Virus record (IMG/VR): IMGVR_UViG_3300033153_007262
Coordinates: 5,407 to 69,406 of that record
Direction: 5' to 3' (one strand)
Length of the DNA: 64,000 bases
Source of the DNA: a virus
Part shown: positions 1-50,960 of the stretch, piece by piece
How positions within the stretch are numbered: the first letter of the stretch is position 1
How the letters are laid out: each line of letters opens with the position of its first letter
The notes under the pieces: model-generated
Database searches by the model: none
Seen by the model: only the letters and a program-made list of their open reading frames with translations
Told to the model about the DNA's origin: nothing
Position numbers and translations under genes: made by a program

Positions 1-101
1 TGTACCGAGTGCCGGCATAAAATGTCGATGTATACAAACGGCGACCGATGTAATAATTGCCAAGAGAGATTACGGAGCAAATTAAATTTTATGGGGAAGA
101 T

Positions 102-320: not shown

Positions 321-326
321 AATATT

Positions 327-629: not shown

Positions 630-663
630 TGGGCATCCATTTCCATAATCCGAGTTTAATAGT

Positions 664-2349
664 TTGGGATATCGATATGTTCGTTTGGGTTTTATGGAAA
701 GGGACGACGTTGGGTTTATTTGGACAGGATTTTATATGATAGAAGAAAATACTGATATAGATAAAGTTGATTTGATGTTCTGCGTCGGTTCGTTAGGCGA
801 ATCGTTGCCGGCAAGACGGCGTGGCAAGGCAATCTTAGACGGCTTGACCAATTGGGAAGAAGACCCGGTCGATATTACGACGTTTGTTGAGAGCGATGAA
901 TACTTAAATCTAAAAGGTGTCGTATGGCCGGCGGTGATGGATGACTTGCGGGATATTTTTGACGTTGACCACGACGTTGTGTTGGCAACGAATAAATTTA
1001 GTCAGTATCAGGAGTGCGTTTTGGATGAGGCCATCGGAGCCGGCAAGAGTTTCATCTCATCAATCGGAATCGTTTATATTACATACAGATTAATCTGTTT
1101 GAAAAACCCACAGAGGTTTTATAAGAAGGCTCCCGGCACATTAATGGCGATTATGAATATGGCTCCGACGGCCACGCAAGCCAAGAACGTCGTGTTCGGT
1201 GAAATCAAAGCACGGGTTGATGGCTCGCCGTGGTTTAAGGAGTTTGGCGGGCTTGATAATAAAATAAAAAGTGTTCTGCGGTTCAATAAAGGGATTACAA
1301 TACTGCCCGGCAATAGCGCAGAGACTTTTCCTTTAGGATATTCTCTCATCGCTTGGATAATGGATGAGGGCGCCTTTTATACGGACACGGGAGACCACGA
1401 TGTTGCTCAAGAAATTTATTACGCCTTGTACCGCCGGTCGCAGTCCCGGTATGAGGATAGATTTTTAGGGATTATGATTTCGTCCCCGAGGTACGTAGAC
1501 GATTTTATAGAACGTAAAATGGACGAGGCAAAGAGGCATCCCGGGACGGTATATTCAAAGCGCCGTGCCTTATGGGAAAGCAAGCCGGAGGATATCGAGG
1601 CGATTAAGAACGGCGAGACGTTTGAATTAGACGGTGCGCAGATACCATTAATATATAAAAAGACTTTTGACGAGAACCCGGACAAGGCGTGGCGGGATTT
1701 GGGCGCAAGACCGTCGTTGGTATTGGAACCGTACTTTAAGCAATGGAAATTACTGCAAGCCGGAGTTGACAACACAATGATTCACCCGGCGGACAAGGAT
1801 AATAAATTTTTTGATTGGTTTGTAGGGGAAGAGCCGTTCACATATTACTCACATATTGACTTGGCGCTTACCGGGGACGCTTGCGGTCTTGCAGTTTGCC
1901 ATATGGACGTCGATATTATTGTGATAGACTTAATGTTGCAGATAAAACCGCTGTCGGGGAAGGAAATCGACCTCGCAAACGTGCGGTCTTATATTTATGA
2001 GATGCAAAAGAGGAAGTTTTATTTTGGTAAGGTGACATATGACCAATTCCAAAGTGCCGAGAGCATACAGGAATTGAATAAGCGTAATATTAGCGCCGAG
2101 AGGTTGTCGGTCGATAAAGATTTGGGGCCGTATGATACACTTAAAGAAATGTTTTATTCCGGGCGTGTTAGATGTTATCAAAGCGATATCTTTTTCACCG
2201 AAGCACGGCGGTTGGAATTGATAAAGGGGAAAAAGGTCGACCATCCTCGCAAGGGAAGTAAAGACGTCACCGATGCAGTTGCCGGGGCCGTCTTTAACTG
2301 CGTGCAAGGGGAAGGTTCGTTCGGCGAGATGACAGTTAGCATCCTATAA
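664..2349 (+). CDS. terL: terminase large subunit (true start possibly ATG 736)
   Basis: Walker A-like AIGAGKS, Walker B WIMDE, ISSP motif, C-terminal RNase H-like HIDLA...D...KDVTDAVAG; directly upstream of portal. Confidence 0.9.
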   Translation: MGYRYVRLGFMERDDVGFIWTGFYMIEENTDIDKVDLMFCVGSLGESLPARRRGKAILDGLTNWEEDPVDITTFVESDEYLNLKGVVWPAVMDDLRDIFDVDHDVVLATNKFSQYQECVLDEAIGAGKSFISSIGIVYITYRLICLKNPQRFYKKAPGTLMAIMNMAPTATQAKNVVFGEIKARVDGSPWFKEFGGLDNKIKSVLRFNKGITILPGNSAETFPLGYSLIAWIMDEGAFYTDTGDHDVAQEIYYALYRRSQSRYEDRFLGIMISSPRYVDDFIERKMDEAKRHPGTVYSKRRALWESKPEDIEAIKNGETFELDGAQIPLIYKKTFDENPDKAWRDLGARPSLVLEPYFKQWKLLQAGVDNTMIHPADKDNKFFDWFVGEEPFTYYSHIDLALTGDACGLAVCHMDVDIIVIDLMLQIKPLSGKEIDLANVRSYIYEMQKRKFYFGKVTYDQFQSAESIQELNKRNISAERLSVDKDLGPYDTLKEMFYSGRVRCYQSDIFFTEARRLELIKGKKVDHPRKGSKDVTDAVAGAVFNCVQGEGSFGEMTVSIL

Positions 2350-2362
2350 AGGAGGATTACCG

Positions 2363-4036
2363 ATGGCAATTAAAAAGAGCAAATCAAAAACGCCCGGGGA
2401 AATGAAAATGTTTGTTACAAACCTCGGTAAAGTTTTCAGTGAAGCCGATTTGAAGCGTTACGAAATCCCGCAGACAAAACAAATCGTCCCGGAGGGGCAG
2501 TTTGGGGCGGAAGCGATATCTCCACCGTATGATTTAGCAAAACTTATGTCGTGGCTAGAGGTTAACGTCGTCCACGGTTCTTGTGTTCGCACGAAAACAC
2601 AAGACAGCGTTGGTATCGGTTGGCATTTAGAATTAGTTGACGAGACAGAGACAGAAGAAAAGAGAGCCGAGCAAGAAAAGGAGGCGCTCACAAACTTTTT
2701 CATAAAAGTAAATGAGAAAGAGGACATCACGTCGGTTATGAAAAAGGTATTCCTAGACTACGAGGGGTGTGGTAACGGCTACATCGAATTAGTCCGGGGC
2801 GACGGCGTGGAATCCGATGTCCTTGAAAAGAGTATCAAGAGTTTATATCACGTCAATGCGACGACCGTCCGATGGGCCAAGACACAGGATAAATTCTTGC
2901 AGAGGATTGGACAAAAGAAAGTTTATTTTAAGTGTTTTGGTGATGACCGGGTACTGAATAAAGATACCGGCACGTTTGGAAAGATTGCCAAGCCGGAGTC
3001 TGTGGCCAATGAGTTAATCCAAGTCCGTCAATATTCGTGGCGGTCGTTTTGGTACGGTTCGCCGGAATGGATTAGTTCAATCGTCCAGATGTATGGGCAA
3101 ATGAAAGAGGCTGAATATAATTTAGACTTCTTTACCAATTATGGTGTGCCGGCGTATGCGGTAATCATAAAAGGTATGAAAATGAACACGACGGTCGAGG
3201 AAACTATTAAGAAATATTTTGAGACCGAGGTAAAAGCAGACCCGCACAAGACGATGGTCTTTGGGTTACCGGCGGGTGGTGAAATTGTCTTTGAAAAGTT
3301 AAGTGTTGAAGCAAAAGAAAGTTCGTTTAATATCTACCGCAAAGATATGCGGGACGATATCTTAACTGCTCATCACGTCCCGCCGTATCGGGCGAGCATT
3401 GTCGAGAAAGGGCAACTCGGTGGCAGTGTAGCCGAGGACGTTGACCGCATATACCTCGACAGCGTTATCAATCCCCGGCAACGGGATTTTGAATGGATTA
3501 TAAATCAGTTAATTATCAAAGAGGGATTCGGTATCACGGCGTGGAGATTTAAGTTTGATGATATCGACATCGATGACAAGAAAACGCAGTCCGATATCGA
3601 TGAGAAATATTTTAATATGGGTGTTTATACGCCGAATCAAATCAGAAAGAAGTTGGGGCTAGAAGAATATGACGGTGGCGACACTTATTACATTGCTGGC
3701 AATCTTGTTCCTGTTGGAGAGATTGAAATAATCGAGGAGAAAGTTGACGAGGACGATTATATCGATGAAGATATCGGCGGTATGAGAGGCGAGGCTATAG
3801 CAAAATACATCGATGCCGTTAATTGGCGGACAGATGAGGACGTGTCTTTACTTAATCACCCCGAGCAGAAAAAGTATATCAAGACGGAGATGTTAGCGCA
3901 GAATGATTTCCTCGGCGGGACATTCCGGGACGTTTATGTCGGTGGGAACGGCGTGTTGGCCATCGTTGGCAAGTTGCAGTCCGGGGAAGTCGATGTCCAA
4001 TGTTTCTTGAAAGATAAAATTAAAAATGAAGATTAG
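2363..4036 (+). CDS. portal protein (PBSX/HK97-like) with C-terminal extension
   Basis: AGGAGG RBS; DYEGCGNGYIELVR, FFTNYGVP, DDILTAHHVPP, TPNQIRKKLGL motifs. Confidence 0.9.
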   Translation: MAIKKSKSKTPGEMKMFVTNLGKVFSEADLKRYEIPQTKQIVPEGQFGAEAISPPYDLAKLMSWLEVNVVHGSCVRTKTQDSVGIGWHLELVDETETEEKRAEQEKEALTNFFIKVNEKEDITSVMKKVFLDYEGCGNGYIELVRGDGVESDVLEKSIKSLYHVNATTVRWAKTQDKFLQRIGQKKVYFKCFGDDRVLNKDTGTFGKIAKPESVANELIQVRQYSWRSFWYGSPEWISSIVQMYGQMKEAEYNLDFFTNYGVPAYAVIIKGMKMNTTVEETIKKYFETEVKADPHKTMVFGLPAGGEIVFEKLSVEAKESSFNIYRKDMRDDILTAHHVPPYRASIVEKGQLGGSVAEDVDRIYLDSVINPRQRDFEWIINQLIIKEGFGITAWRFKFDDIDIDDKKTQSDIDEKYFNMGVYTPNQIRKKLGLEEYDGGDTYYIAGNLVPVGEIEIIEEKVDEDDYIDEDIGGMRGEAIAKYIDAVNWRTDEDVSLLNHPEQKKYIKTEMLAQNDFLGGTFRDVYVGGNGVLAIVGKLQSGEVDVQCFLKDKIKNED

Positions 4037-5144
4037 TATTTTTGATAAGGGCCGGTCGTTATCGGAATTAAAAATCGAGAATGGTTGTGCCACGGATGTT
4101 TATAAAGAATTCAAACGTCAGGGGCGGGAAACCATTAAATGGGCCAATAAAAAAGGGCTGTTTAAGAAACTGCATCGATATTTTTCCGATGAGTACCCCG
4201 GTCTTTATGAAAAGGCTACGAAGAAAGACGCAAAAAGAATAAACGCTATGATTTATGATTGGGGCAAGGCGGTCAAGCCCGAAAAGATGGAGGAGGTACT
4301 TTATAAATGGTACCTTGTATCAGGAAATTACGCCGGCAATCAAGTAATGAAAGATTTGAAGGTCGCCCCGCAGTTTAATCTTCGCAACCCGGATATGCTT
4401 AGTGGTTTCGCCGAGAGGGGTGAGAAGATTACCGGCTCCATTACCAAGACCACGCTAAAAAACTTCCGAAATAAACTCGCAAAGACATATGCAAAGGTCG
4501 GTATGAGTCCGTACGCCGTTGAAAAAGAAATCAAAGGTATGTTTAAGGAAACATATAAGAACCGGGCAAGGACAATCGCCCGGACAGAGACCCGCATCGC
4601 CCAATCAACCGTCAAGCACGAGACTTATGCCCGCAATGGAATTAAAAAGAAAAGATGGTCGTCATCAAAGGACGATATCGTCCGCCCAACACATTCCGTG
4701 GCGGATGGTCAGGTGAGATTGGTGAAGAACACGTTTATGGTCGGCGGTGTTGCTATGGCGCACGACCACGACCCAAGCGCCCCGGCAAAAGAGGTCGTTA
4801 ACTGCCGATGCAGTACACAATATTTTTCTGATTTAAGAAGTTACAAGCCGGTAAAGGTATGGGAGGGTGGCGCAGACGGTGTTGTCCGGCGTGTTCCGGG
4901 CGGGCCATCCCCGGCGTTGGTAAAAAGTTTCAAAGACAGATATAAAACCCTATCGGCGTTTGTTAATTTGCCGAAGATGGGGGCAGACCAGATAAGTACC
5001 GTGCAAGCGATGGTAGATGCCGGGCGTGTTCTCTCGGCAATGAAATATTTAGGAAAGTATTCCGGCTTAAGAGCATCGACATTAAAAAAGGCGAAGGGTT
5101 ACGCCGGGTACAAAGCAAATTACAGAAAGTGTACGGGCAAATGA
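4026..5144 (+). CDS. MuF / SPP1 gp7-like minor head protein with basic C-terminal extension
   Basis: RARTIARTE, KKRW...DDIVRPTH...DGQ, NCRC motifs; follows portal. Confidence 0.85.
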   Translation: MKISIFDKGRSLSELKIENGCATDVYKEFKRQGRETIKWANKKGLFKKLHRYFSDEYPGLYEKATKKDAKRINAMIYDWGKAVKPEKMEEVLYKWYLVSGNYAGNQVMKDLKVAPQFNLRNPDMLSGFAERGEKITGSITKTTLKNFRNKLAKTYAKVGMSPYAVEKEIKGMFKETYKNRARTIARTETRIAQSTVKHETYARNGIKKKRWSSSKDDIVRPTHSVADGQVRLVKNTFMVGGVAMAHDHDPSAPAKEVVNCRCSTQYFSDLRSYKPVKVWEGGADGVVRRVPGGPSPALVKSFKDRYKTLSAFVNLPKMGADQISTVQAMVDAGRVLSAMKYLGKYSGLRASTLKKAKGYAGYKANYRKCTGK

Positions 5145-41903: not shown

Positions 41904-41982
41904 AAAACAATATCAACAGGTTCTCGGTCAACTTGTCCTGATTGATGAATTGCTGAAACCCCACATAGGGGCCGGCAAGTAA
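41785..41982 (+). CDS. small coiled-coil hypothetical protein
   Basis: GGAGGAG RBS before ATG 41785; overlaps the low-complexity tail of the GT9 ORF. Confidence 0.5.
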   Translation: MEKSEGQESKTRNAEEIANVSPEKLMAMRREKQELATLLEKQYQQVLGQLVLIDELLKPHIGAGK

Positions 41983-41989
41983 GGAGGGC

Positions 41990-42394
41990 GTGATGCCCAT
42001 AAAGAAAGGCGAATCAGAAATGAATGGAGACCTCGGAAAAATATACAAGGCGGTAAATGAAGTCAAAACCGATGTCGAGGTCTTGGCAAAACAGCAGACG
42101 TTAAATCACACAGAAAATAAGGGTGATATCGAAGTTTTATTTGATAAGATTGGCAAGGTCGACCTCTTGCCTTGCGCCGTTCACGTTGAGAAATTTAGGA
42201 CGTATGACAAGAGTTTGGCGATTGGGAGTACGTGGAAAGTTGCCCTTGTGATTGTGTTCCTCGGTTTGATTATCGAGGCGGTGGCATTTGCGGTATCTTG
42301 GGGGCGTATAGTCGAATCCAACGAAGGGATACACCGGCAGATAAAATTATTACACCCGGCCCCGGCTTTGGAGTTCTCAAATGGCAATAATTGA
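41990..42394 (+). CDS. single-TM membrane protein (lysis-cassette type)
   Basis: GGAGG RBS; coiled coil followed by TM segment. Confidence 0.55.
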   Translation: MMPIKKGESEMNGDLGKIYKAVNEVKTDVEVLAKQQTLNHTENKGDIEVLFDKIGKVDLLPCAVHVEKFRTYDKSLAIGSTWKVALVIVFLGLIIEAVAFAVSWGRIVESNEGIHRQIKLLHPAPALEFSNGNN

Positions 42395-42764
42395 AATTGA
42401 CCGCCATATTTTGGCGCAAATTATTATGATACAGGAGAAGGTCAAACTGCTCCAAGTGGAACATAAAAAACAATGGGCGGTTATTCAGCAAGTCAAAGAG
42501 CGCACATACACCTTGTTGTTTGTTAGCCCGGATGGATGCAATGTAAAAACACCCGAATGCCAAAAGCGTATGGAGTGCCTGTTAAAGGAAGGCCGGCGAA
42601 TCTTAAAGGCAACGTTAAAAGCCGAAAGCGTATGCAATGAAATTATAAGAATGGAGGCAAAGCAAGAAGCCCTGATGACGCATCTGGTTTCTACAATCCG
42701 GGAAGCAGATACCAAGAAGGGCCTTGAGGCAACGGAGAATGGAAGCAGTAAAATTAACCCGTAA
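42381..42764 (+). CDS. hypothetical coiled-coil protein
   Basis: GGAG RBS; 127-aa ORF. Confidence 0.55.
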   Translation: MAIIEIDRHILAQIIMIQEKVKLLQVEHKKQWAVIQQVKERTYTLLFVSPDGCNVKTPECQKRMECLLKEGRRILKATLKAESVCNEIIRMEAKQEALMTHLVSTIREADTKKGLEATENGSSKINP

Positions 42765-42781
42765 AAACAAGGAGGTGCTGT

Positions 42782-43063
42782 ATGGAAGGATTATCATTGG
42801 GAGGACTGGACGTTTATAGTGCGGGCGGAATATTAGCCGTAGCGATACCGTTCATTGTTCAGCAAATAAAGAAATTGAAATTCATTGGAAATAAGAATGC
42901 GCCAATCCTCGCATTTATTCTCGGTCTTGCCGGAGGCCTTGCCGGGTACTTTACCGGCTTTGCGCCGGAGGGGATGTCGCTAATCCAATCCATCGTGTCG
43001 GGCATTGCGGTCGGGGGAACGTCCTCCGGGTTGTATGACGTAGCCAAAAAAGTCGGCACATAA
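42782..43063 (+). CDS. holin
   Basis: AGGAGG RBS; 3 TM; IVQQIKK...P....GI..G..SSGLYD..K motif. Confidence 0.75.
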   Translation: MEGLSLGGLDVYSAGGILAVAIPFIVQQIKKLKFIGNKNAPILAFILGLAGGLAGYFTGFAPEGMSLIQSIVSGIAVGGTSSGLYDVAKKVGT

Positions 43064-43079
43064 AATCAGGGAATCGACC

Positions 43080-43110
43080 GAGCCGGGGCATCAAACCCCG
43101 GCTCTTTTTT
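43080..43110 (+). terminator. intrinsic terminator ending the late operon
   Basis: GAGCCGGGG/CCCCGGCTC stem followed by 6 T. Confidence 0.85.
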
Positions 43111-43117
43111 ATGCCAA

Positions 43118-43281
43118 AATCCTCGTCGACAAACCCCCTCCCCCGACGACGACGCCCACACCGACGAGGAATTGAAAACCGCACAATTCGTCGACGAGGA
43201 ATCGATATTTCCGACCCACCACACACCCCGGGATTCCCGCCCAAAATGTCACATTTGGAGATTAAATACCTCAATCCTCGT
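43118..43281. repeat. short CGACGAGGA motif repeats (direct and inverted)
   Basis: CGACGAGGAAT at 43162 and 43192; inverted AATCCTCGT at 43118 and 43273. Confidence 0.55.
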
Positions 43282-43372
43282 AGAAATAGATTCGGGCCTT
43301 TCTGAGATGTTGTAACCCTTTGAAACTAGGCGACTTACGTCATTCCCCGTACCCCGCCCGGCCCGGTTTACC

Positions 43373-43401
43373 TTGCTTGTTATGATATATTATATTATAT
43401 T
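43373..43401 (+). promoter_or_regulatory. putative early sigma70-type promoter
   Basis: TTGCTT-17 nt-TATATT in an AT island within GC-rich DNA. Confidence 0.6.
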
Positions 43402-43875
43402 ATAAGTGGGACGGGGAGGGACGCCGAACCACCGGGACGGTCGAGGGCGAGACGCCGGGGAAAGAGAAGGCCGACAGGGATTGACAAAAAGGGAAGCGGA
43501 AACAGGGACGACCAGCCGGGGGAACAGGACGAGGCGGGCCGGACGCAAACCCTCAAGGACACGGCGGAATAAGACCCGGGAGCATAAAGGCGCAAGCCAG
43601 AAACCCGCCCGGAGGACGCCGGCTACCAAAACCGAGAGAAGCCAATAAAGTTTACGGGGCTTGAAAAAACTCAAACCGAAATCGGCGGAAGGTAGATTGA
43701 CCGAATCCCGAAAGGCCCGGTCAAGTGAAAGAGGCAGAGGATTGGAAAAGAAGCAATTTTCAAAAAAAGGTATTTTGCCATATGCCTTAAATAACAATAA
43801 TGGGAATGGCGGGGAACGGCGGTTGCCCCAAATTTTCAAACGCCCTTTTGTCCGTTAAGCCAAACGGAGTTATCA

Positions 43876-43947
43876 GGCGAAAGTCTACGGCCCTTACCCG
43901 GGCCGGTAGGCTCCGCAAGGCGGTCGTTCCCCTTGCGCTGATGAGCC
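43876..43947 (+). ncRNA. hammerhead ribozyme HH0, type II (predicted cut after 43913, CUC)
   Basis: GGC-GAAA-stem III (AGTCTAC..GTAGGCT)-C-stem I (CGCAAGG/CCTTGCG)-CTGATGA-GCC. Confidence 0.85.
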
Positions 43948-43955
43948 AAACGCAA

Positions 43956-44010
43956 ACCCGCTGATGAGACCGGGAGGCACGGTCGAAACGGTATAAAAAA
44001 CCGTCCGGGT
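43956..44010 (+). ncRNA. hammerhead ribozyme HH1, type I (cut after 44005, GUC)
   Basis: ACCCG-CTGATGA-GACCG/CGGTC-GAAA-CGGT/ACCG-TC-CGGGT. Confidence 0.93.
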
Positions 44011-44040
44011 AATAATGCCCAATAAAAACGGAGGTGCATT

Positions 44041-44379
44041 ATGAGAGTACAAATCGATGCAACAATTGAGAAAGCCGACCAGAAATTGGCGGTGGGAACG
44101 GGCCTGCAAGGATATTTCAGCCGAGGCACAACCTACAAAGCGCTAGTTGAAAAGTTAGGAAAGCCAAACGCCGGAGAATCAGGCGACGGCAAGGTCAAGG
44201 CGGAATGGATTGTCAAACTGAAGTTTCATAGGAAAGACCCCGGCATAATATTTACAATCTACGATTATAAATCGTCGGTTGCGCCGGAGGAGAATACCGA
44301 TTGGCACATAGGAGGCAAAGGTCAGGCAATGCTCGAAATCTTTTCCCAAGTAATGGGGATTGGGATTGAGAACGATTAA
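44041..44379 (+). CDS. hypothetical early protein
   Basis: GGAGGT RBS; DGKVKAEW...FTIYDYK...WHIGG common phage small-protein pattern. Confidence 0.8.
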   Translation: MRVQIDATIEKADQKLAVGTGLQGYFSRGTTYKALVEKLGKPNAGESGDGKVKAEWIVKLKFHRKDPGIIFTIYDYKSSVAPEENTDWHIGGKGQAMLEIFSQVMGIGIEND

Positions 44380-44444
44380 CCCGCTGATGAGCCGTTGAGA
44401 TTACGGCGAAACGCCCCGGGGCGCAAGCCCCCGGGCGTCCGGGT
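44379..44444 (+). ncRNA. hammerhead ribozyme HH2, type I (cut after 44439, GUC)
   Basis: ACCCG-CTGATGA-GCCGT/ACGGC-GAAA-CGCCC..GCAA..GGGCG-TC-CGGGT. Confidence 0.93.
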
Positions 44445-44473
44445 AATAATGCCCAAGAAAATGGAGGTGGGAA

Positions 44474-44989
44474 ATGGCATTAGGAACGAATTATAAAAGA
44501 ATCGGAAGGAAGCAAGACCTCATTTTGCGGATTCAAATCGCCCGGGTTGGACATCTTGGCGGGGTTTACGGCAAGATGACGAGGGACGAGGCGGTCGAAA
44601 GTACAAAAGGTTACAGCCGGAAATTAACGGTTGGAGAATTAGCCGAAATATTAAAACCGCTTGAGGCAATAGCAAAGAAGAAAAGGCCGACCGAAGGGAA
44701 ATGGAAATTCGTTTATTCCAAAGGCTTAACGCCGACGGCAAGGATTGTGTCGGTTGATTTGCTAAACAAAGGATACTCGGATTGGATTTGCGAGATGCCC
44801 TTTGGCAGTGAATCGGAAGCGAGGGAGATGGGCGGTAGCCACATCGCCAACGCCCGGTTAATAGCAAGGGCGCCGGAACTAATAGAGAAGTTAAAGGAGG
44901 CTGAAAAGTTTTTGAAAATGCTCGGCGTGAAAGACGAAATTGTTGATGAGATAAATTCATTAATAAATAAAGTTGAGCAGACGAGATAA
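44474..44989 (+). CDS. hypothetical early protein
   Basis: GGAGGT RBS; ANARLIARAPEL motif seen in many phage small proteins. Confidence 0.8.
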   Translation: MALGTNYKRIGRKQDLILRIQIARVGHLGGVYGKMTRDEAVESTKGYSRKLTVGELAEILKPLEAIAKKKRPTEGKWKFVYSKGLTPTARIVSVDLLNKGYSDWICEMPFGSESEAREMGGSHIANARLIARAPELIEKLKEAEKFLKMLGVKDEIVDEINSLINKVEQTR

Positions 44990-44990
44990 A

Positions 44991-45054
44991 ACCCTCTGAT
45001 GAGCCGGCGAGATACCGGCGAAACCGCCCGGGCGCAAGCCCGGACGGTCAGGGT
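44991..45054 (+). ncRNA. hammerhead ribozyme HH3, type I (cut after 45049, GUC)
   Basis: ACCCT-CTGATGA-GCCGG/CCGGC-GAAA-CCG..GCAA..CGG-TC-AGGGT. Confidence 0.93.
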
Positions 45055-45082
45055 AATAATGCCCATAACAAGGAGGTGCATT

Positions 45083-45538
45083 ATGAATAACACGCCGACA
45101 AAAAAGTATCTTCAAGAGAATGTTATTGTTGACGAGGTCAGCAAGAACAAGGCCGGCAATTTTATTTTTAGGGAGGGGTTCTTCTATACGCACGGGCGCA
45201 CGGCAAACAGCCACGCCGACAGCATACAGAAGCAACTTACGGATTTGGGATTTAAGAATTTCAAATTCGTCGACACCGGGGAGCATTGGAGGGAATTCAA
45301 AGGTGGCGCCTCGTTAAGAACGCAGTCGCATTGGTATGTCGAAGTTAAGTTTGACGCCGAGGAGCCGGATGTCACGGCGCCGGTTAAGGTTGGCGACAAG
45401 TTGTACTCTTGGGACGGTAAGATTGGAACGGTAAAGAAGATTCACGCTTTGGGCGATATGGCCGACGTGGATTTTGGCAACGGCAACATTTACGGAATTG
45501 CCTTTAGCCGAATCAAAGGTAGCAAAGTTGGAAAATAA
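45083..45538 (+). CDS. hypothetical early protein (start corrected to ATG 45083)
   Basis: AGGAGGT RBS; C-terminal SH3/KOW-like VKVGDK...G.V segment. Confidence 0.8.
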   Translation: MNNTPTKKYLQENVIVDEVSKNKAGNFIFREGFFYTHGRTANSHADSIQKQLTDLGFKNFKFVDTGEHWREFKGGASLRTQSHWYVEVKFDAEEPDVTAPVKVGDKLYSWDGKIGTVKKIHALGDMADVDFGNGNIYGIAFSRIKGSKVGK

Positions 45539-45604
45539 ACCCGCTGATGAGATTGTGAAAGTCAATCGAAACGCCCCGGGGCGCAAGCCCCCGGGCGTCC
45601 GGGT
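45539..45604 (+). ncRNA. hammerhead ribozyme HH4, type I (cut after 45599, GUC)
   Basis: ACCCG-CTGATGA-GATTG/CAATC-GAAA-CGCCC..GGGCG-TC-CGGGT. Confidence 0.93.
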
Positions 45605-45632
45605 AATAATGCCCAAAACAAGGAGGCGCATT

Positions 45633-45911
45633 ATGAAAAAGACAACGGGATATACGTCAAAGAAGGTTCACTATTGGCAGTTGAACCCAAAAGACCGGGC
45701 AACATATGACCGGCAAGAATCATTAAAAGAAGAAGGGGATTGTGAACGGTTTTATTTTTGGCTGTTCACCCCGGGCATCGGGTACCGGCAAATGGGGTAC
45801 ACCGAGGGATACAAAACGGTCGAGGCGCTAAAGGAACATTGCATTAATAATCGTACCGATTGTATTTACCGCATTACAAGGTCACAGATTTGTCTTTCAA
45901 ATAAAAGATAA
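45633..45911 (+). CDS. hypothetical early protein (start ATG 45633), paralog of 46416..46676
   Basis: AGGAGG RBS; ERFYFWLF...RQMGYTEGYKT. Confidence 0.8.
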   Translation: MKKTTGYTSKKVHYWQLNPKDRATYDRQESLKEEGDCERFYFWLFTPGIGYRQMGYTEGYKTVEALKEHCINNRTDCIYRITRSQICLSNKR

Positions 45912-45912
45912 A

Positions 45913-45970
45913 ACCCTCTGACGAGTCTTTGAAAATTAAGACGAAACCGCCGGCCCCCGGCGGTCAGGGT
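45913..45970 (+). ncRNA. hammerhead ribozyme HH5, type I (cut after 45965, GUC)
   Basis: ACCCT-CTGACGA-GTCTT/AAGAC-GAAA-CCGCCGG/CCGGCGG-TC-AGGGT. Confidence 0.93.
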
Positions 45971-45999
45971 AATAATGCCCATAAAACAGGAGGTGCATT

Positions 46000-46323
46000 A
46001 TGGTAAAACGAATCGATAAATTAAAAAAGTTGGTAGCGGAGTTTGAGTCCTTGCAGAAAAGGTACAAACATACCGGCGCCGACGACACCGAGCCGGACGC
46101 ACAGTTTCAGTTACGCTTGGTACAGTTTTATCAAGGGAATAGCGAGTTGCCGGCAAGAAGAGAATGGGAACTATACTCGGGCCATAAAAGGCACGACGAG
46201 GTTGCCGACCTTTTGACGGCGAAGTTAAAAGAAATCCGAACAGTTATTCACGGCTCGACGGATAGTAACCACGAGGAAATAAAAACATACCTCGAGGAAT
46301 ATGTTTGGAGAATAGATTTTTAA
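46000..46323 (+). CDS. hypothetical early protein
   Basis: AGGAGGT RBS; GADDTEPD motif. Confidence 0.8.
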   Translation: MVKRIDKLKKLVAEFESLQKRYKHTGADDTEPDAQFQLRLVQFYQGNSELPARREWELYSGHKRHDEVADLLTAKLKEIRTVIHGSTDSNHEEIKTYLEEYVWRIDF

Positions 46324-46388
46324 CCCTCTGACGAGTCGTTGAAAATTACGACGAAATATTCCCCGGCGACGCCGGGGGATATCAGGGT
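46323..46388 (+). ncRNA. hammerhead ribozyme HH6, type I (cut after 46383, AUC)
   Basis: ACCCT-CTGACGA-GTCGT/ACGAC-GAAA-TATTCCCCGGC/GCCGGGGGATA-TC-AGGGT. Confidence 0.93.
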
Positions 46389-46415
46389 AATGATGCCCAT
46401 AAAAAGGAGGACGTT

Positions 46416-46676
46416 ATGGAAAAGAAAAAGACGACCCAAACGTGGGAAATGACAAAGAAGGAATTGCGGGCGCAAACGTTGGACAAGTCAAAAGCAGAAT
46501 CATATGAAACAGAACGATTTTACTTTTGGCTGTTCTCGGAAGCCGGCGGTTGGAGGCAGTTGGGATACACCGAGGGGTACAAAACGGAAAAGGCATTGAG
46601 AGAAGATAATAAATATCATTTCGATAAGAAAGATATTATCCGCATTACAAAATCAACGATTATTAAAAGAGGCTAA
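46416..46676 (+). CDS. hypothetical early protein, paralog of 45633..45911
   Basis: AGGAGG RBS; ERFYFWLF...RQLGYTEGYKT. Confidence 0.8.
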   Translation: MEKKKTTQTWEMTKKELRAQTLDKSKAESYETERFYFWLFSEAGGWRQLGYTEGYKTEKALREDNKYHFDKKDIIRITKSTIIKRG

Positions 46677-46731
46677 CCCGCTGATGAGATTGTGAAATTC
46701 AATCGAAACGCCCGGCGACGGGCGTCCGGGT
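46676..46731 (+). ncRNA. hammerhead ribozyme HH7, type I (cut after 46726, GUC)
   Basis: ACCCG-CTGATGA-GATTG/CAATC-GAAA-CGCCCG-GCGA-CGGGCG-TC-CGGGT. Confidence 0.93.
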
Positions 46732-46760
46732 AATGATGCCCATAAAATGGGAGGTGTATT

Positions 46761-47237
46761 ATGAGCGAGAAAGCATATCTGAAAAAGAAAGGACGCCTTG
46801 AGTGTATGGTCGAGGTTGCAGAATCGGAGATTGAGTTTATAGACGGCTCAATCGAAAAGGTAAAAGAGAAAGCCGAACGACAAATCAAAAAGTTGTTAGA
46901 GATGTCCGGCAAGATTGAAGACCGCCGGGACAAATACAACGACCAGATTAAACAAATTGATGAACAACTCGGCGCTTGCCAGAAAAGAAAAGTTGCCAAG
47001 ACACAGGTACTTGCCGGCGAGGACAAATCGGTATGGGTGTTTTACGAAGCCTACGACTTTGTTGCCGAGGCAAAGATTGAGGCGCTTGGAAAGAAATTGA
47101 AATTAAAAAGAGAAGGAAGCGGTGGAGGATTCCAATCGTCAAAGAGAGATATCTCGTTTGGCCTCGGGGGTAACCCAAAGGAAAAAATCCTCAAAGCATT
47201 CCGTAAACTAAAAGATGTGACGGCAAGGATTTATTAA
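46761..47237 (+). CDS. hypothetical early protein, N-terminal coiled coil
   Basis: GGAGGT RBS; 158-aa ORF. Confidence 0.8.
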   Translation: MSEKAYLKKKGRLECMVEVAESEIEFIDGSIEKVKEKAERQIKKLLEMSGKIEDRRDKYNDQIKQIDEQLGACQKRKVAKTQVLAGEDKSVWVFYEAYDFVAEAKIEALGKKLKLKREGSGGGFQSSKRDISFGLGGNPKEKILKAFRKLKDVTARIY

Positions 47238-47238
47238 A

Positions 47239-47293
47239 ACCCTCTGACGAGTCCGTGCAACCCGGACGAAACGCCCCGGTGGGGCGTCAGGGT
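47239..47293 (+). ncRNA. hammerhead ribozyme HH8, type I (cut after 47288, GUC)
   Basis: ACCCT-CTGACGA-GTCCG/CGGAC-GAAA-CGCCCC/GGGGCG-TC-AGGGT. Confidence 0.93.
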
Positions 47294-47315
47294 AACCCAT
47301 AACAAGGAGGACGGA

Positions 47316-47531
47316 ATGAGTAAGCAACCACCGAGACCGTACTTCGGTACGGATTGGACAGGAAAATGTATCACGAGCAGTTATATGAGTGTCGAACGTG
47401 TAGAAAAAGAAATCCTAAGTCGATGGGGAGCCGAGAACAGGTGGGGCTACCGCCCCGGGACTTATAAAGTCATCGACGTGAAAAGAAATGTTTACAAGGA
47501 AATAAGAATTGAGAGAAGAGAAACCCTCTGA
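47316..47531 (+). CDS. hypothetical early protein
   Basis: AAGGAGG RBS; its TGA stop lies inside the HH9 core. Confidence 0.75.
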   Translation: MSKQPPRPYFGTDWTGKCITSSYMSVERVEKEILSRWGAENRWGYRPGTYKVIDVKRNVYKEIRIERRETL

Positions 47532-47588
47532 GGAGTCTTTGGAAATTAAGACGAAATATTCCCCGGCGACGCCGGGGGATATCAGGGT
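47523..47588 (+). ncRNA. hammerhead ribozyme HH9, type I (cut after 47583, AUC)
   Basis: ACCCT-CTGAGGA-GTCTT/AAGAC-GAAA-TATTCCCCGGC/GCCGGGGGATA-TC-AGGGT. Confidence 0.92.
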
Positions 47589-47624
47589 AATAAAATCCAT
47601 AACAATTTAACACAGGAGGTGTCT

Positions 47625-48074
47625 ATGGAATTTATGTACAACGATGGAGGACGTGAGGACGCCGGGTATAAAGGTAGCGCCGGAGACTGCGTCGTCCGTG
47701 CCATCTCAATCGCAACCGGGAAGCCTTACCAAGAGGTGTACGACAAATTGAAAGACGCAAACCTCACGTTTGCATACACAAAAAGATGTCGTGTCGCCCG
47801 GAAGTTATTAAAGAGAGGCAGTACGCCGAGAAACGGGAATTACAAAAAAGTGTATCGGAAGTATTTAGAGGCGCTTGGATGGAAGTGGACACCGACGATG
47901 TTCATCGGTAGCGGGTGCAAAGTCCACCTCAAAAAAGACGAGTTGCCCGGCGGTAAACTTATTGTAAATGTTTCAAAGCATATAACTGCGGTTGTCGACG
48001 GAGTTATCAATGACACATTTGACTGCTCGAGGGACGAGACAAGATGTGTGTACGGATATTACATCAAAAACTAA
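47625..48074 (+). CDS. conserved phage protein, possible papain-like (Cys-His-Asp) fold
   Basis: AGGAGGT RBS; GDCVVRAI...KHITAVVDG...DTFD. Confidence 0.7.
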   Translation: MEFMYNDGGREDAGYKGSAGDCVVRAISIATGKPYQEVYDKLKDANLTFAYTKRCRVARKLLKRGSTPRNGNYKKVYRKYLEALGWKWTPTMFIGSGCKVHLKKDELPGGKLIVNVSKHITAVVDGVINDTFDCSRDETRCVYGYYIKN

Positions 48075-48120
48075 AGAGAACCCCGGCGAGGGTTTCCTCG
48101 CCCCAAACAAGGAGGGCAAG

Positions 48121-48522
48121 TTGAAGATTGTAAAATTCATTGTGCCGGAGAATTTGAAAGCCGGTGAGATTTACCCCGACCATAAAGTAATCGCTTATGG
48201 TGAAGTTGCGGGTGACAGCGGACAAGTTTACGACGTCGGGCGGTACGCCGACCTCGAATACTTCTGTTCGTGCAAGGGCCGGTTATTCAACCGGCAAAGC
48301 GAATGCAAACACATTCGGTTGTTCAAAGAACGGGAAGCCGACGAGATTATTGCGGAGGACGACCCGACCGAGACCCCCGGCGCCGAGTTTTGGAAGTCGG
48401 AATGGTGTGACTGTAACAAAGAGGACGCCCCGGTATTTTTTGACGACGGGGAGTGTTCTTGCGGAACGGTGAAGCATCATTATCATTGTAAATTCTGCGG
48501 TAAGATTACACAGATTGGATAA
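48121..48522 (+). CDS. SWIM zinc-finger protein (TTG start 48121)
   Basis: AAGGAGG RBS; CSC...CKH SWIM motif plus C-terminal Cys/His cluster. Confidence 0.7.
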   Translation: MKIVKFIVPENLKAGEIYPDHKVIAYGEVAGDSGQVYDVGRYADLEYFCSCKGRLFNRQSECKHIRLFKEREADEIIAEDDPTETPGAEFWKSEWCDCNKEDAPVFFDDGECSCGTVKHHYHCKFCGKITQIG

Positions 48523-48581
48523 TACAAACAACCCGGGGCGTGGGTATAAACGCTCACGCCTCCAAACAGGAGGAGAAGAAA

Positions 48582-49559
48582 ATGGCACACGCAGTTAACG
48601 AAGGGAAGCGAATGTTTTATGTTGGCGAGGTACCGTGGCACGGATTAGGCACGGCCCTCGACAAGCCGGCTACGTCGGTCGAGGCAATTGCATCGGCGCA
48701 GTTGGATTATCCCATCGAGTTAAAAGAAATACAGACCGTCGATGGCAGAATGATTGACGGGAAGCGGGCAACGGTGAGAGGCGATACAAAAGTCCCCCTC
48801 GGTGTTGTCGGTGACGGATATCGTGTTGTCCAGAACGTCGAAGCATTTAGTTTCTTCGACGAGGTGGTCGGCGAAGGTCAAGCCATCTATCATACCGCCG
48901 GGGCTTTAGGAGCCGGGGAACGAATTTGGATACTTGCGAAGTTGCCGGGCGAGTTAATTATAGGGAAGGAAGACAAGGTTGATGAATATCTTTGTCTTAC
49001 TAATTCCCACGACGGCAGAAGTTCGTTAAAAATGTATTTCACGCCAATCCGAGTTGTTTGTCAGAACACGTTGTCGATGTCAATGAAGGACGCTAAAGAC
49101 GGCGTTTCGATTCGACACTCCGGCAACATTAAAACTAAAGTTGAAAAGGCGCAGGAAACTTTACGCCTTGCGACAAAGTTTTATCAGGAGTTCGGCGAGG
49201 TAGCAAAGCAGTTAGGAAACACAAAGTTAAAAAAGGAACAGGTCGAGGGATATTTTACCGCCCTGTTGTTCAAAGGAGACAAGGAAAAAGAAAAAACGTC
49301 TGTGCAACTTAAACGTCAGAGAAATGAATTGTTGGCGCTGTGGGAACACGGCAAGGGCAACGATATCAAAGACATTAAGCACAGCGCTTGGACGGCCTAC
49401 AATTCCGTAACGGAATATGTTGACCATCACAAAACGTTCAAAGGCATTCAGAAAGACCCGTCGACCAGATTAAAAAATATCTGGTTCGGCACCGGGGCGA
49501 TTACGAAAGGCCGGGCGTTTGATGGCATTTTAGAAACAGCCGGTATCAAGGTAGGATAA
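48582..49559 (+). CDS. DUF932 family phage/plasmid protein
   Basis: AGGAGG RBS; PWHGLG, Y.VVQN.EAF.F, TAGAL..G, NSHDG, PIRVVCQNT motifs. Confidence 0.85.
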   Translation: MAHAVNEGKRMFYVGEVPWHGLGTALDKPATSVEAIASAQLDYPIELKEIQTVDGRMIDGKRATVRGDTKVPLGVVGDGYRVVQNVEAFSFFDEVVGEGQAIYHTAGALGAGERIWILAKLPGELIIGKEDKVDEYLCLTNSHDGRSSLKMYFTPIRVVCQNTLSMSMKDAKDGVSIRHSGNIKTKVEKAQETLRLATKFYQEFGEVAKQLGNTKLKKEQVEGYFTALLFKGDKEKEKTSVQLKRQRNELLALWEHGKGNDIKDIKHSAWTAYNSVTEYVDHHKTFKGIQKDPSTRLKNIWFGTGAITKGRAFDGILETAGIKVG

Positions 49560-49628
49560 TTACCAGACGGCCCGGGAGGGTGGCTCGCTACGGCGGGTTG
49601 CCCTCCCTTAAAGAAGGGAGTACGCCTT

Positions 49629-49868
49629 ATGGGAAAGAGCAAAGCAGAAACATTATTGAAATGGATACTGTGGCATTACCCGAACGGATATTTTAGGACA
49701 TCCGTCCGGGGTGTCCCGTGCCTCGTCGTTAAAAAAGGCAACACCGAGTTGGGCGTTGCATATTTTGGCAAGTCGGATTCGTTCAGAATGTTTGCCAATG
49801 ACGTCGGCGAGAAGTGGGATATTAAAACAAAAGAAGAGGTTATCGAATACCTGAAGGGAGGTGATTAA
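49629..49868 (+). CDS. hypothetical protein
   Basis: AGGGAG RBS. Confidence 0.7.
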   Translation: MGKSKAETLLKWILWHYPNGYFRTSVRGVPCLVVKKGNTELGVAYFGKSDSFRMFANDVGEKWDIKTKEEVIEYLKGGD

Positions 49869-50369: not shown

Positions 50370-50615
50370 ATGCCAAGAAAAGATGTAGGAGACACAGACG
50401 CAATCCGGGTTTACCTCGGTAAGAAAGCGGGGGCTTGGACGATTGAGCCACCGAGAATTGTTGTAAAAGAATGGGCAGAGATGCGAGGCGTGAACACGTC
50501 GGGGACGGGAAGATGGAATATCAAACAGACGCACGATATTCTAATCGTCGCCCAATCGATTAAGGAAATAACAAAATTAATCAAGGCGTATCGGCGCAAG
50601 AATCAAATCCTCTGA
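50370..50615 (+). CDS. hypothetical protein
   Basis: AAGGA RBS; TGA stop inside the HH10 core. Confidence 0.7.
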   Translation: MPRKDVGDTDAIRVYLGKKAGAWTIEPPRIVVKEWAEMRGVNTSGTGRWNIKQTHDILIVAQSIKEITKLIKAYRRKNQIL

Positions 50616-50674
50616 TGAGACCGTGAGAGCCGGTCGAAACGCCCCGGGTGATTACCCGACCGGGGCGTCAGGAT
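50607..50674 (+). ncRNA. hammerhead ribozyme HH10, type I (cut after 50669, GUC)
   Basis: ATCCT-CTGATGA-GACCG/CGGTC-GAAA-CGCCCCG../..CGGGGCG-TC-AGGAT; compensatory change in stem I. Confidence 0.92.
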
Positions 50675-50699
50675 AACCATAACAAAGGAGGTGAGATAA

Positions 50700-50960
50700 A
50701 TGAAAAGAGCAGTCGCAGAAATAATTGTTGACCTCTTACAAGACGCCGGACACGACGCCAAGATTTACGAAGGGTATAGTGGCCGGGGGATGTTTGGGGT
50801 GGAGACGACCGGCATTGATACGTCGGCAACTTCCGAGTATGTTGCCGGGCTTGTTGCCGGCAAGAAAGACAAAGAAGAGTTTGACGAAAAAGAACGGGCG
50901 TTGTTGAACGCCGTTGTTATACGAGGAGATAATTTAGGGTTGGGCTACATCGTATATTAA
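50700..50960 (+). CDS. hypothetical early protein
   Basis: AGGAGGT RBS; YSGRGMFG...DNLGLGYIVY common phage small-protein motif. Confidence 0.8.
   Translation: MKRAVAEIIVDLLQDAGHDAKIYEGYSGRGMFGVETTGIDTSATSEYVAGLVAGKKDKEEFDEKERALLNAVVIRGDNLGLGYIVY

Follow-up and report, generated by a model that had tools for sequence, protein, structure and literature searches.

Refolding into a 5'-terminal hairpin probably shields and fixes the RNA ends made by phage hammerhead ribozymes, in a recurrent design

Introduction

What becomes of the 5' end of a message once a self-cleaving ribozyme has made it? The question is raised by an array of hammerhead ribozymes interleaved with nine small ORFs on the + strand of a 64,000-nt stretch of DNA, which was analysed as a whole (hereafter the window) and is part of a 69.4-kb IMG/VR phage record. 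The source is a virus record, and the window encodes a portal, a tape measure, a tail fibre, helicases and a polymerase, the best matches of the latter (about 33% identity) coming from Bacillus and Geobacillus phages and faecal phages. Perreault et al. (2011; PMC3088659) likewise reported same-orientation hammerheads between small genes of tailed phage and proposed that they cut a long transcript into single-gene mRNAs; the role of bacterial and phage hammerheads is still debated (review PMC6765202). Here we ask what the RNA just past the cut can fold into, and whether that fold has been selected.

Results

The array comprises 10 type I copies, nine of them (HH1–HH9) within the range covered by the earlier note and HH10 outside it, and one type II copy. 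Type I copies are laid out in the order CUGANGA, stem II, GAAA, stem III, UC cut site and 5-bp stem I, with the stop codon of the upstream gene abutting stem I. Past the cut, the succession of terminal hairpin, A-rich spacer and SD described in the earlier note is real, and leads to the ATG. The elements are as follows, the hairpins being those predicted in the cleavage products.

43875..43951, +, type II hammerhead, first in the array, cut after GGCUC (Rfam and sequence reading)
Type II product, +, beginning with a stem I hairpin of 7 bp (CGCAAGG/CCUUGCG)
43956..44005, +, HH1 type I hammerhead, from the stem I 5' strand ACCCG to the cut after C44005
44007..44020, +, HH1 product hairpin GGGUA-AUAA-UGCCC; leader ends at ATG 44041
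44033-44042, +, GGUGCAUUAU, complementary to the HH1 tail (44012-44020)
44379..44439, +, HH2 type I hammerhead
44441..44454, +, HH2 product hairpin; ATG 44474
44476-44482, +, GGCAUUA in codons 2-3, complementary to the HH2 tail UAAUGCC (44447-44453)
44991..45049, +, HH3 type I hammerhead
45051..45064, +, HH3 product hairpin; ATG 45083
45539..45599, +, HH4 type I hammerhead
45601..45614, +, HH4 product hairpin; ATG 45633
45913..45965, +, HH5 type I hammerhead; stem II GUCUU-UGAAAAUU-AAGAC
45967..45980, +, HH5 product hairpin; ATG 46000
46323..46383, +, HH6 type I hammerhead, cut site AUC
46385..46398, +, HH6 product hairpin GGGUA-AUGA-UGCCC; ATG 46416
46676..46726, +, HH7 type I hammerhead
46728..46741, +, HH7 product hairpin GGGUA-AUGA-UGCCC; ATG 46761
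47239..47288, +, HH8 type I hammerhead
47290..47298, +, HH8 mini-hairpin GGG-UAA-CCC (-2.7 kcal/mol); ATG 47316, start region lacking a complement
47523..47583, +, HH9 type I hammerhead, core CUGAGGA, cut site AUC
47585..47598, +, HH9 product hairpin GGGU-AAUAAA-AUCC (-2.8 kcal/mol); ATG 47625
47624-47635, +, UAUGGAAUUUAU, complementary to the HH9 tail (47590-47601)
50604..50669, +, HH10 type I hammerhead (start alternatively placed at 50607), stem I AUCCU/AGGAU
HH10 product, +, AGGAUAACC, lacking a stable hairpin (-0.3 kcal/mol); ATG 50700

Judged by core and helices, the 10 copies are type I hammerheads predicted to self-cleave. The core reads CUGAUGA in six, CUGACGA in three and CUGAGGA in one, with GAAA and UC in 10/10; stems I and II have 5 bp each and stem III has 3-12 contiguous pairs, stems II and III being closed and stem I open. 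All three stems display compensatory changes, most stem positions having two to three pair types among the 10 copies. An Rfam search at the gathering thresholds gave no match for the type I copies (RF00163, clan CL00010; best scores: 23.8 bits against 34 for Hammerhead_1 and 28.5 bits against 56.3 for RAGATH-1-hammerhead), which depart from the seed models in their long stem III and in loop II. The element at 43875-43951 scored 30.3 bits (E 0.0038; 28.2 bits in a second run) with Hammerhead_II (RF02276), whose gathering threshold is 37, and aligned over its full length to model positions 1-66, with a permuted core and an open stem II. Its loop I CGUU is complementary to AACG just past stem II, a putative pseudoknot read from the sequence; the arrays of Perreault et al. 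likewise include a type II copy whose loop I forms a pseudoknot with the tail (PMC3088659).

A product hairpin that reuses stem I bases

The tails quoted for HH1–HH9 in the earlier note are all in place, each beginning one base past a complete type I hammerhead: GGGTAATAATGCCC at 44007, 44441, 45051, 45601 and 45967, GGGTAATGATGCCC at 46385 and 46728, GGGTAACCC at 47290 and GGGTAATAAAATCC at 47585. In HH1–HH7, nucleotides 2-15 of the predicted cleavage product fold into a stem capped by a tetraloop (-6.3 kcal/mol, RNAfold); the stem has five pairs, GGGUA/UGCCC, and not the four first proposed. HH8 and HH9 carry weaker variants (-2.7 and -2.8 kcal/mol, RNAfold). Compared with shuffles of their own tails, the hairpins gave p values of 0.003-0.02 (HH1–HH7), 0.053 (HH9) and 0.17 (HH8). 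The hairpin takes up four of the five bases of the stem I 3' strand, so that it and stem I are mutually exclusive: that the same GGGU can pair either upstream or downstream follows directly from the sequence, and the observation of a post-cleavage hairpin made from stem I bases is confirmed. We found no published description of a refolding product hairpin in the literature; the text of PMC3088659 at hand discusses pseudoknots that stabilise the active fold and describes neither a downstream alternative partner for stem I nor a hairpin-capped product.

Before cleavage, nearest-neighbour ensemble energies calculated with either stem I or the hairpin enforced lie close together, the difference ranging from -4.3 to +2.7 kcal/mol, with the hairpin state preferred in HH2, HH6, HH7, HH8 and HH10. 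These values would suit a throttle acting on the uncut RNA, whereby the downstream strand competes with stem I and makes processing partial or dependent on ribosomes, temperature or a factor; the upstream stop codon adjoins stem I, which a terminating ribosome would open. We nevertheless regard a throttle as distinctly improbable: nearest-neighbour energies take no account of tertiary docking, by which natural hammerheads are stabilised, stem I comes first in transcription, the hairpin has one extra base pair only for invading stem I, and a throttle needs no flush position, yet 88 of the 90 hairpins identified in relatives (see below) begin at nt 1 or 2. The earlier suggestion that the hairpin forces cleavage to occur within a co-transcriptional window is unlikely too, given that no more than 7-10 nt separate the cut from the hairpin 3' strand, which hence emerges far too soon for any hammerhead rate on record (more than 1.2 per min; PMC3088659).

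Covariation of tail and stem I in other phages and prophages

The window copies are near-identical paralogs and not independent of one another; we therefore turned to hammerheads of other phages and prophages, 179 distinct ones in all (86 from viral contigs and 93 from genome contigs), chosen by stem II and loop II alone. The query subfamily of this wide search was of the HH5 type, with loop II fixed as UGAAAAUU in all 179, and the prophage carriers are mostly Bacillota, going by record titles. A hairpin was counted if it reached -3 kcal/mol or better and used at least three stem I bases. It was found in 90 of the 179 relatives, where chimeras predict about 33. On viral contigs, 39/86 distinct products have it (chimeras: 12.9 +/- 2.8, maximum 23 in 200 permutations) and 28/86 reach p<=0.05 against shuffles of their own tails; the genome contigs, used as a replicate, gave 51/93 (chimeras: 20.2 +/- 3.1, maximum 31) and 29/93, respectively. 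Among the 90 hairpins, 68 begin at product nt 1, 20 at nt 2 and two at nt 3. Tail and stem I 3' strand covary, in support of selection on the downstream partner, and it is these other genomes, not the window paralogs, that on sequence grounds provide the decisive support for the hairpin.

The hairpin is not universal, being present in only 90 of the 179 subfamily members and missing from HH10 in the window. Only 9/95 other ACCCN/NGGGU hammerheads reach p<=0.05, and a related array of eight ribozymes has it in none. A detectable SD and start downstream accompany 63/90 products with the hairpin and 53/87 without it, which amounts to no association (p=0.21).

The same collection bears on the idea that the tail serves the ribozyme by engaging loop II, in a pseudoknot or another tertiary contact on which fast cleavage would depend, the hairpin being incidental. 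An A is the first base past stem I in 73% of the 179, and AA precedes stem I in 94% and 88%; in the window, the AUUA end of loop II could pair with the tail UAAU in HH2, HH5, HH6 and HH9, and GGCA with UGCC in HH1. However, no such pairing is available to HH3, HH4, HH8 and HH10, and, although loop II is constant in the 179, the tail has no conserved complement to it (AAUU in 11, AUUUU in one and UAAU in 13 of 179), the hairpin 3' strand following stem I rather than loop II. A ribozyme-serving tail is thus highly improbable.

Orthologs and the possibility of a passive repeat

Two orthologous cassettes with 74-80% DNA identity have changed stems II and III and an unchanged tail: product nt 1-20 are identical in the HH9 ortholog, as are 36/37 leader bases in the HH1 ortholog. 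The hairpin shows both covariation across the 179 hammerheads and persistence in orthologs with altered helices. One relative has an extra ribozyme-plus-gene cassette, and identical leaders with identical first codons stand ahead of different genes. Together with the near-identity of the window paralogs and the agreement between the hairpin partner base and the stem I 5'-strand base at 333/371 positions, this would be expected if the downstream copy were a functionless direct repeat, a remnant of ribozyme-leader cassettes having been duplicated, inserted or recombined. Such a repeat scarcely explains why two independent collections, each with many different stem I sequences, both exceed chimeras and shuffles, or why tails stay invariant in orthologs while adjacent helices and coding sequence diverge. 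Moreover, hairpin loop lengths vary and 34 of the 90 hairpins have a wobble-swapped partner, so that the tail is no plain copy of the stem I 5' strand. We consider this the least credible of the readings.

Pairing between the tail and the start region

Predicted hairpin occupancy in the product is often low (0.56, 0.32, 0.67, 0.04 and 0.09 in HH1–HH5; 0.59, 0.07, 0.74, 0.00 and 0.14 in HH6–HH10) since the start region offers the tail an alternative partner. In 8/10 cassettes the tail is complementary to the start-codon region (duplexes of -7.0 to -10.7 kcal/mol; p 0.002-0.08 against shuffled tails), and according to these models the leader may be bistable.

In this phage only, translation could conceivably be gated by cleavage through a three-state leader, in which the 9-12-nt tail pairs either with the SD/AUG or, only after the cut, with the stem I 3' strand. 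Before the cut, the tail AAUAAUGCC would mask the end of the SD and the AUG; afterwards, GGGUA would capture UGCCC and the start region would open. The complementarity has been reached by at least three sequence solutions, in HH1/3/4/5 (with wobble variants in HH6 and HH7), in HH2 (codons 2-3) and in HH9, and enforcing stem I gives the A of the AUG a pairing probability of 0.97-0.99 in six cassettes and of 0.76 in HH7, a value that drops in the cleaved product to 0.29 (HH1) and 0.27 (HH6). A relative whose gene-2 homologue lacks this tail reads GCG-CUA where the window reads GCA-UUA, and the HH9 ortholog keeps both the tail and UAUGGAAUUUAU invariant while the spacer between them has diverged. 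On the other hand, the AUG is still predicted to be paired in the cleaved products of HH4 (0.94), HH5 (0.89), HH7 (0.84) and HH9 (0.99), HH8 and HH10 have no complement in the start region, and HH1, HH3, HH4 and HH5 share their whole cassette by descent and so represent one event. Nor is the pairing a family trait: in the 117 hammerheads for which a start was located, duplex energies average -2.64, whereas chimeras give -2.87 +/- 0.12. Gating of this kind is accordingly unlikely, both as a mode of translational control and as a three-state device, though less so than the alternatives above. If true, uncleaved polycistronic RNA would be translationally masked at every gene start until a cut exposed and capped the message that it had made, and phage hammerheads would be per-gene expression switches, beyond RNA scissors.

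Discussion

The reading that we prefer is that the stem I 3' strand has two alternative partners and that the flush hairpin protects the processed 5' end; we put its probability at slightly better than even (about 0.55). The upstream partner ACCCN, being transcribed before the downstream one, would allow the ribozyme to fold and, in vivo, to cut after UC. The upstream fragment would depart carrying the entire ribozyme at its 3' end, GC-rich stems II and III included. Nucleotides 1-15 of the downstream mRNA would then refold into a hairpin flush with the new 5'-hydroxyl end, ahead of the A-rich spacer and strong SD of the processed message. Product release, a block to religation, end protection and standardised initiation had all been put forward as effects of the hairpin; among these we infer that protection of the 5'-OH end is the most likely, the selected effect being a uniform, protected 5' end where the host decay machinery attacks free 5' ends. 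Irreversible release would be a by-product, and a 5-bp stem I is expected to dissociate fast unaided. Since stem I is open in type I hammerheads, a flush 5' hairpin must reuse a stem I strand, so that competition between the two is imposed by the architecture and need not be the point of the design.

Hammerheads of types II and III have a closed stem I, a hairpin that begins with the first base past the cut, so that the 3' product is automatically hairpin-capped, as in the type II copy of the window. In type I hammerheads, whose stem I is open, the extra downstream strand would restore the same product architecture by refolding. Stem-loops located very few bases from the 5' end stabilise mRNAs in the E. 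coli ompA leader and in B. subtilis leader hairpins, a position comparable with that predicted here (product nt 2 in HH1–HH9, nt 1-3 in the 90 relatives). However, ompA-type 5' ends arise by transcription initiation, whereas the phage end would be made by a ribozyme, with the 5' arm of the hairpin locked until the cut. The B. subtilis glmS/RNase J1 system likewise has a 5' end made by self-cleavage whose fate is set by a 5'-to-3' exonuclease, RNase J1 degrading the 3' fragment (PMC10810187); there the cut destabilises the message, and the phage product hairpin would do the opposite.

A close parallel in layout is offered by RiboJ insulators, in which a hammerhead strips the upstream context and a hairpin separates the new 5' end from the RBS; this terminal hairpin was proposed to expose the RBS and to increase mRNA stability (PMC6206723). 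RiboJ is synthetic, and its 23-nt hairpin is a separate element having no bases in common with the ribozyme helix (PMC6206723), whereas in the phage four of the five bases of the 5' arm belong to the stem I 3' strand. The phage leader would thus be a natural and compact insulator design, the message retaining only five ribozyme bases and building its hairpin from them. A selected refolding hairpin would be a concrete, mutable feature tying the ribozyme to what happens to the mRNA downstream of it, and predicts that processed messages begin, at a 5'-hydroxyl, with a hairpin and end in a structured ribozyme.

Finally, leaders of this kind also occur without a ribozyme: four contigs carry the same leader immediately after a TTGACA-17-TATGCT promoter, and other genes in this phage are preceded by a hairpin, an A-rich spacer and an SD.

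Hammerhead ribozymes of the window and their setting

The hammerhead core pattern gave nine matches in the window versus 0.04 expected, eight of which (8/9) are hammerheads; over the whole record, the same pattern gave 10 forward and 0 reverse matches. HH6 and HH9 escaped the first core pattern because their cut site is AUC. Listing all CTGANGAG sites and parsing their flanks yielded ten type I hammerheads, HH1-HH10, and a rule-based scanner retrieved exactly the same ten in the window and no others. According to this scanner, each copy has a stem I of 5 bp, a stem II of 5 bp and a stem III of 3-12 contiguous pairs; most stem positions alternate between two or three kinds of base pair, and the core is invariant save N7. 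A search of the window with Rfam returned no match at gathering thresholds, and only sub-threshold matches, to RAGATH-1-hammerhead, Hammerhead_1 and Hammerhead_3, at E-value thresholds. Two copies lie outside the range given in the earlier note (44006-47598):

43875-43951, + strand: type II hammerhead, full-length Rfam Hammerhead_II match (30.3 bits versus a gathering score of 37)
50604-50700, + strand: HH10, type I hammerhead (ribozyme to start region)

The type II copy opens the array, adjoining HH1 in tandem. The CGUU of its loop I can form, with the AACG directly after stem II, the same loop I/tail pseudoknot as that described for type II hammerheads by Perreault et al. (PMC3088659).

The window was taken from a 69.4-kb IMG/VR virus record, of which it spans bases 5407-69406, and its + strand holds every long ORF. 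PHROG matches identify portal, tape measure and tail fiber J; helicases, a DnaB-like helicase and a DNA polymerase follow. The hammerhead range separates the tail module from the replication module and contains nine small ORFs, mostly without a match to a family of known function. Two of these small genes (45633-45911 and 46416-46676), neither of which has a family match, look like DNA-level paralogs, with a common stretch near gaacg.ttttac/tttttggctgttc. As to the host, only distant polymerase matches were found. No promoter-like site was found on the + strand between 43,400 and 49,100, and a terminator-like hairpin lies upstream at 43080-43110 on the same strand; together, these features fit an array that would be read through as one transcript. 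Note that the ~1.9 kb at 41950-43875 has no ORF >134 aa, is purine-rich on the + strand and has no Rfam match besides the type II hammerhead.

Hammerhead arrays flanking phage genes are known, as is the proposal that they cut long transcripts into single-gene mRNAs (PMC3088659; review PMC6765202). In the paper texts covered by our literature search, we found no account of a hairpin that the stem I strand forms in the product, or of a downstream pairing partner under selection.

The stem I 3' strand has a second predicted partner in the cleaved product

After the predicted cut, the downstream RNA begins with the five bases N-GGGU. The earlier note had claimed that this GGGU can pair either with its upstream partner in the ribozyme or with a downstream one in a hairpin; this was borne out, and the hairpin sequences that it quoted are all present where it placed them. 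More specifically, RNAfold pairs product nucleotides 2-6 with nucleotides 11-15 in HH1-HH7 (GGGUA/UGCCC, tetraloop AUAA or AUGA, -6.3 kcal/mol) and predicts GGG-UAA-CCC in HH8 (-2.7 kcal/mol) and GGGU-AAUAAA-AUCC in HH9 (-2.8 kcal/mol). Since the 5' arm of the hairpin holds four of the five stem I bases, stem I and the hairpin are mutually exclusive. Compared to shuffles of their own tail (the bases after stem I), the products of HH1-HH7 gave p values of 0.003-0.02, HH9 0.053 and HH8 0.17. Relative to HH1-HH7, the two variable partner positions of HH9 have U in place of C opposite G and A in place of G opposite U, and pairing is kept at both. HH10, in which stem I is changed to AUCCU/AGGAU, has essentially no hairpin (-0.3 kcal/mol), because its tail (AACC) did not follow the stem I change. 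Between cut site and ATG, all ten cassettes have nearly the same sequence, so that selection cannot be shown from the window alone.

The stop codon of the upstream gene abuts or overlaps each stem I in the window (UAA-ACCC), so that a terminating ribosome would cover the core along with the 5' strand of stem I. Three other gene junctions (48075-48125, 48530-48585 and 49575-49632) have no hammerhead core but contain a strong hairpin followed by CAAACA and an SD; at 48082-48097 and 48530-48546, AACCC and GGGU(U) surround a short loop and overlap the next hairpin. These coreless junctions look like the same two-state logic, or like hammerheads minus a lost core.

The product hairpin is enriched in one hammerhead subfamily

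We assembled a first set of type I hammerheads with stem I ACCCN/NGGGU from viral contigs, comprising 95 distinct products outside the window. Most have an SD and an ATG within 10-40 nt downstream; a hairpin engaging stem I was found at p<=0.05 in only 9/95, and in none of the products of an eight-ribozyme array (L022). Type I hammerheads thus do not carry the hairpin as a rule. The positives have their stem II/loop II in common with HH5, HH6 and HH9 (GUCnn-UGAAAAUU-nnGAC), and we therefore fetched this subfamily by stem II/loop II alone, leaving stem I and tail unconstrained.

At least 148 matches were found in viral contig loci, 26 being dropped (no stems by rule, or end of the locus); the matches listed gave 88 distinct products, or 86 once the phage's own genome was removed. 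A hairpin was scored when the minimum free energy of the first 24 nt was <= -3 kcal/mol and at least three stem I bases were used. Among the matches listed, 39/86 products have the hairpin, versus 12.9 +/- 2.8 (maximum 23, 200 permutations) for chimeras joining the stem I strand of one ribozyme to the tail of another; the mean energy is -2.69, versus -1.02 +/- 0.15 for chimeras and -0.88 for shuffles, and 28/86 reach p<=0.05. Genome contigs provided a replicate: of the matches listed there, we could parse 99 and dropped 28, which added 93 distinct products, of which 51 have the hairpin (chimeras 20.2 +/- 3.1, maximum 31) and 29 reach p<=0.05.

Stem I is highly diverse in both sets (GGUGGC, GGCUAG, GGGAUU, GCGGU, CACUU, UAUUGC and others), and the downstream strand changes with it. 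Among the matches listed in both sets, the hairpin starts at product nucleotide 1 in 68/90, 2 in 20/90 and 3 in 2/90. That the hairpin strand might be a simple direct repeat of the stem I 5' strand is argued against by the 34 of these 90 hairpins with at least one wobble-swapped partner relative to that strand, as where upstream GUCACC and downstream GCUACC both pair with GGUGGC. Among the matches listed, the association between the hairpin and a detectable start downstream was not significant.

The tail could instead be part of the active ribozyme, through a contact with loop II. Such pairings are possible in the window (AUUA/UAAU in HH2, HH5, HH6 and HH9; GGCA/UGCC in HH1), with nothing comparable in HH3, HH4, HH8 and HH10. 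Furthermore, since the 179 hammerheads all have the fixed loop II UGAAAAUU, a Watson-Crick pseudoknot should give a conserved tail motif, and no conserved complement was found among the matches listed (AAUU 11/179, AUUUU 1/179, UAAU 13/179). We hold this reading to be improbable. In the same 179 matches listed, the AA just 5' of stem I is conserved (94% and 88%), and an A stands just 3' in 73%.

Ten type I hammerheads that differ in stem I lie on a GC-rich phage contig (L101, - strand, 54-4505); several of their products contain a mini-hairpin, or a start-codon complement of the stem I strand, and all have the leader motif CUACCAGAAAGGA in common.

The tail is conserved in close relatives

A tail-pattern search of viral contigs returned 52 stretches, 0/52 preceded by a hammerhead; as relatives, these were rejected as chance matches, save one promoter-linked leader. 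Likewise, the scanner found a hammerhead in none of 24 loci retrieved through a neighboring 339-aa protein (<=41% identity). A metagenome search with tail and SD gave 66 stretches, 55 of them distinct, with hammerheads only in L419 and L464, two contigs from related phage with 74-80% DNA identity to the window. The HH9 ortholog in L419 has stems II and III that are entirely different in sequence yet compensated; it matches the window exactly over product nucleotides 1-20, the SD and UAUGGAAUUUAU, with a diverged 10-nt spacer. The leader of the HH1 ortholog in L464 is identical at 36/37 bases, the adjoining coding sequence showing ~76% identity. In these alignments, the constraint on the tail is thus stronger than that on the ribozyme helices.

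Where the window has HH9, L419 (1-1387, set against window 47442-48136) has one extra hammerhead-plus-gene cassette, whose leader, including AUGAAAAAG, is common with HH4, yet a different gene follows; gain, loss or recombination thus seems to involve whole cassettes. In both L464 hammerheads, at 4681 and 4982 on the reverse strand, the sequence is CUGAUGAU, in which an extra U separates core and stem II, and window 42825-43952 has 74% identity with this contig.

The tail is also predicted to pair with the start region

When the precursor is folded, AAUAAUGCC also pairs with GG-UGCAUUAU, that is, the SD end and the AU of the AUG. These duplexes reach -7.0 to -10.7 kcal/mol in 8/10 cassettes (p 0.002-0.08 versus shuffled tails); HH8 and HH10 have no tail complement in the start region. 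The tail has another target in HH2 (GGCAUUA, codons 2-3) and a 12-nt match around the AUG in HH9; in HH6 and HH7 the pairing is kept via G-U wobbles, which points to pairing at the RNA rather than the DNA level. As a single anecdote, the L464 homolog of gene 2 follows a type II ribozyme, lacks the tail and reads GCG-CUA versus GCA-UUA in the window. This pairing is not enriched in the subfamily (mean -2.64 versus -2.87 +/- 0.12 for chimeras, in the 117/179 matches listed for which a start could be located). Complementarity of the tail to the start region is a new observation and, among the hammerheads compared, specific to this phage.

Using a nearest-neighbor model leaving out tertiary terms, we found that the stem I-enforced and hairpin-enforced ensembles differ by -4.3 to +2.7 kcal/mol before cleavage. 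With stem I enforced, the A of the AUG has a pairing probability of 0.97-0.99 in HH1, 3, 4, 5, 6 and 9; the value for HH7 is 0.76. For the cleaved products of HH1-HH10, the hairpin probabilities are 0.56, 0.32, 0.67, 0.04, 0.09, 0.59, 0.07, 0.74, 0.00 and 0.14, respectively, and the AUG is predicted to remain paired in HH4, 5, 7 and 9. The model thus predicts a bistable leader rather than a clean switch, which counts against the simple form of two ideas: that of the earlier note, and a three-state reading, where the tail pairs with the stem I 3' strand after the cut or with the SD/AUG region.

Possible role of the structured 5' end

The upstream stem I strand would be transcribed first, so that the hammerhead would fold and cut. 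The hairpin would not be needed to drive product release, as a 5-bp intermolecular stem I should dissociate fast unaided. Nor is it likely to force co-transcriptional cleavage: its 3' strand emerges just 7-10 nt past the cut site, leaving the ribozyme an exclusive time well below 1 second, whereas hammerheads are reported to cut at ~1 per minute (>1.2 per min, PMC3088659). The unique contribution of the hairpin would rather be a structured end flush with the 5'-hydroxyl. Type II and III hammerheads give products that start with a closed stem I, as does the type II copy of the window, whose product opens with a 7-bp hairpin; type I products lack it, and the extra downstream strand restores that architecture. 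Among the matches listed, roughly 65/80 prophage carriers of the subfamily are Bacillota by record title. RNase J1 of B. subtilis is described as degrading the 3' fragment from glmS self-cleavage (PMC10810187), and for RiboJ, a stabilizing effect of its remaining terminal hairpin on mRNA has been proposed (PMC6206723).

Other genes of this phage have a hairpin, an A-rich spacer and an SD without a ribozyme, and a Christensenellaceae prophage has GGGUAAUAGUGCCC from product nucleotide 4, with a different stem I. A ribozyme-free leader was found in four contigs:

L133 520-575, - strand (also L145, L161 and L166): leader GGGTAATAATGCCCAAAAC..GAGGAG..ATG behind a TTGACA-17-TATGCT promoter-like site

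Its 19-nt start, GGGUAAUAAUGCCCAAAAC, is the same as in leaders behind the hammerheads; it lies seven bases past the promoter and is followed by the SD-like GAGGAG and the AUG. These observations, from the Bacillota carriers onward, fit a leader element acting at mRNA 5' ends, whatever their origin. The promoter-like site of this leader overlaps a GC hairpin.
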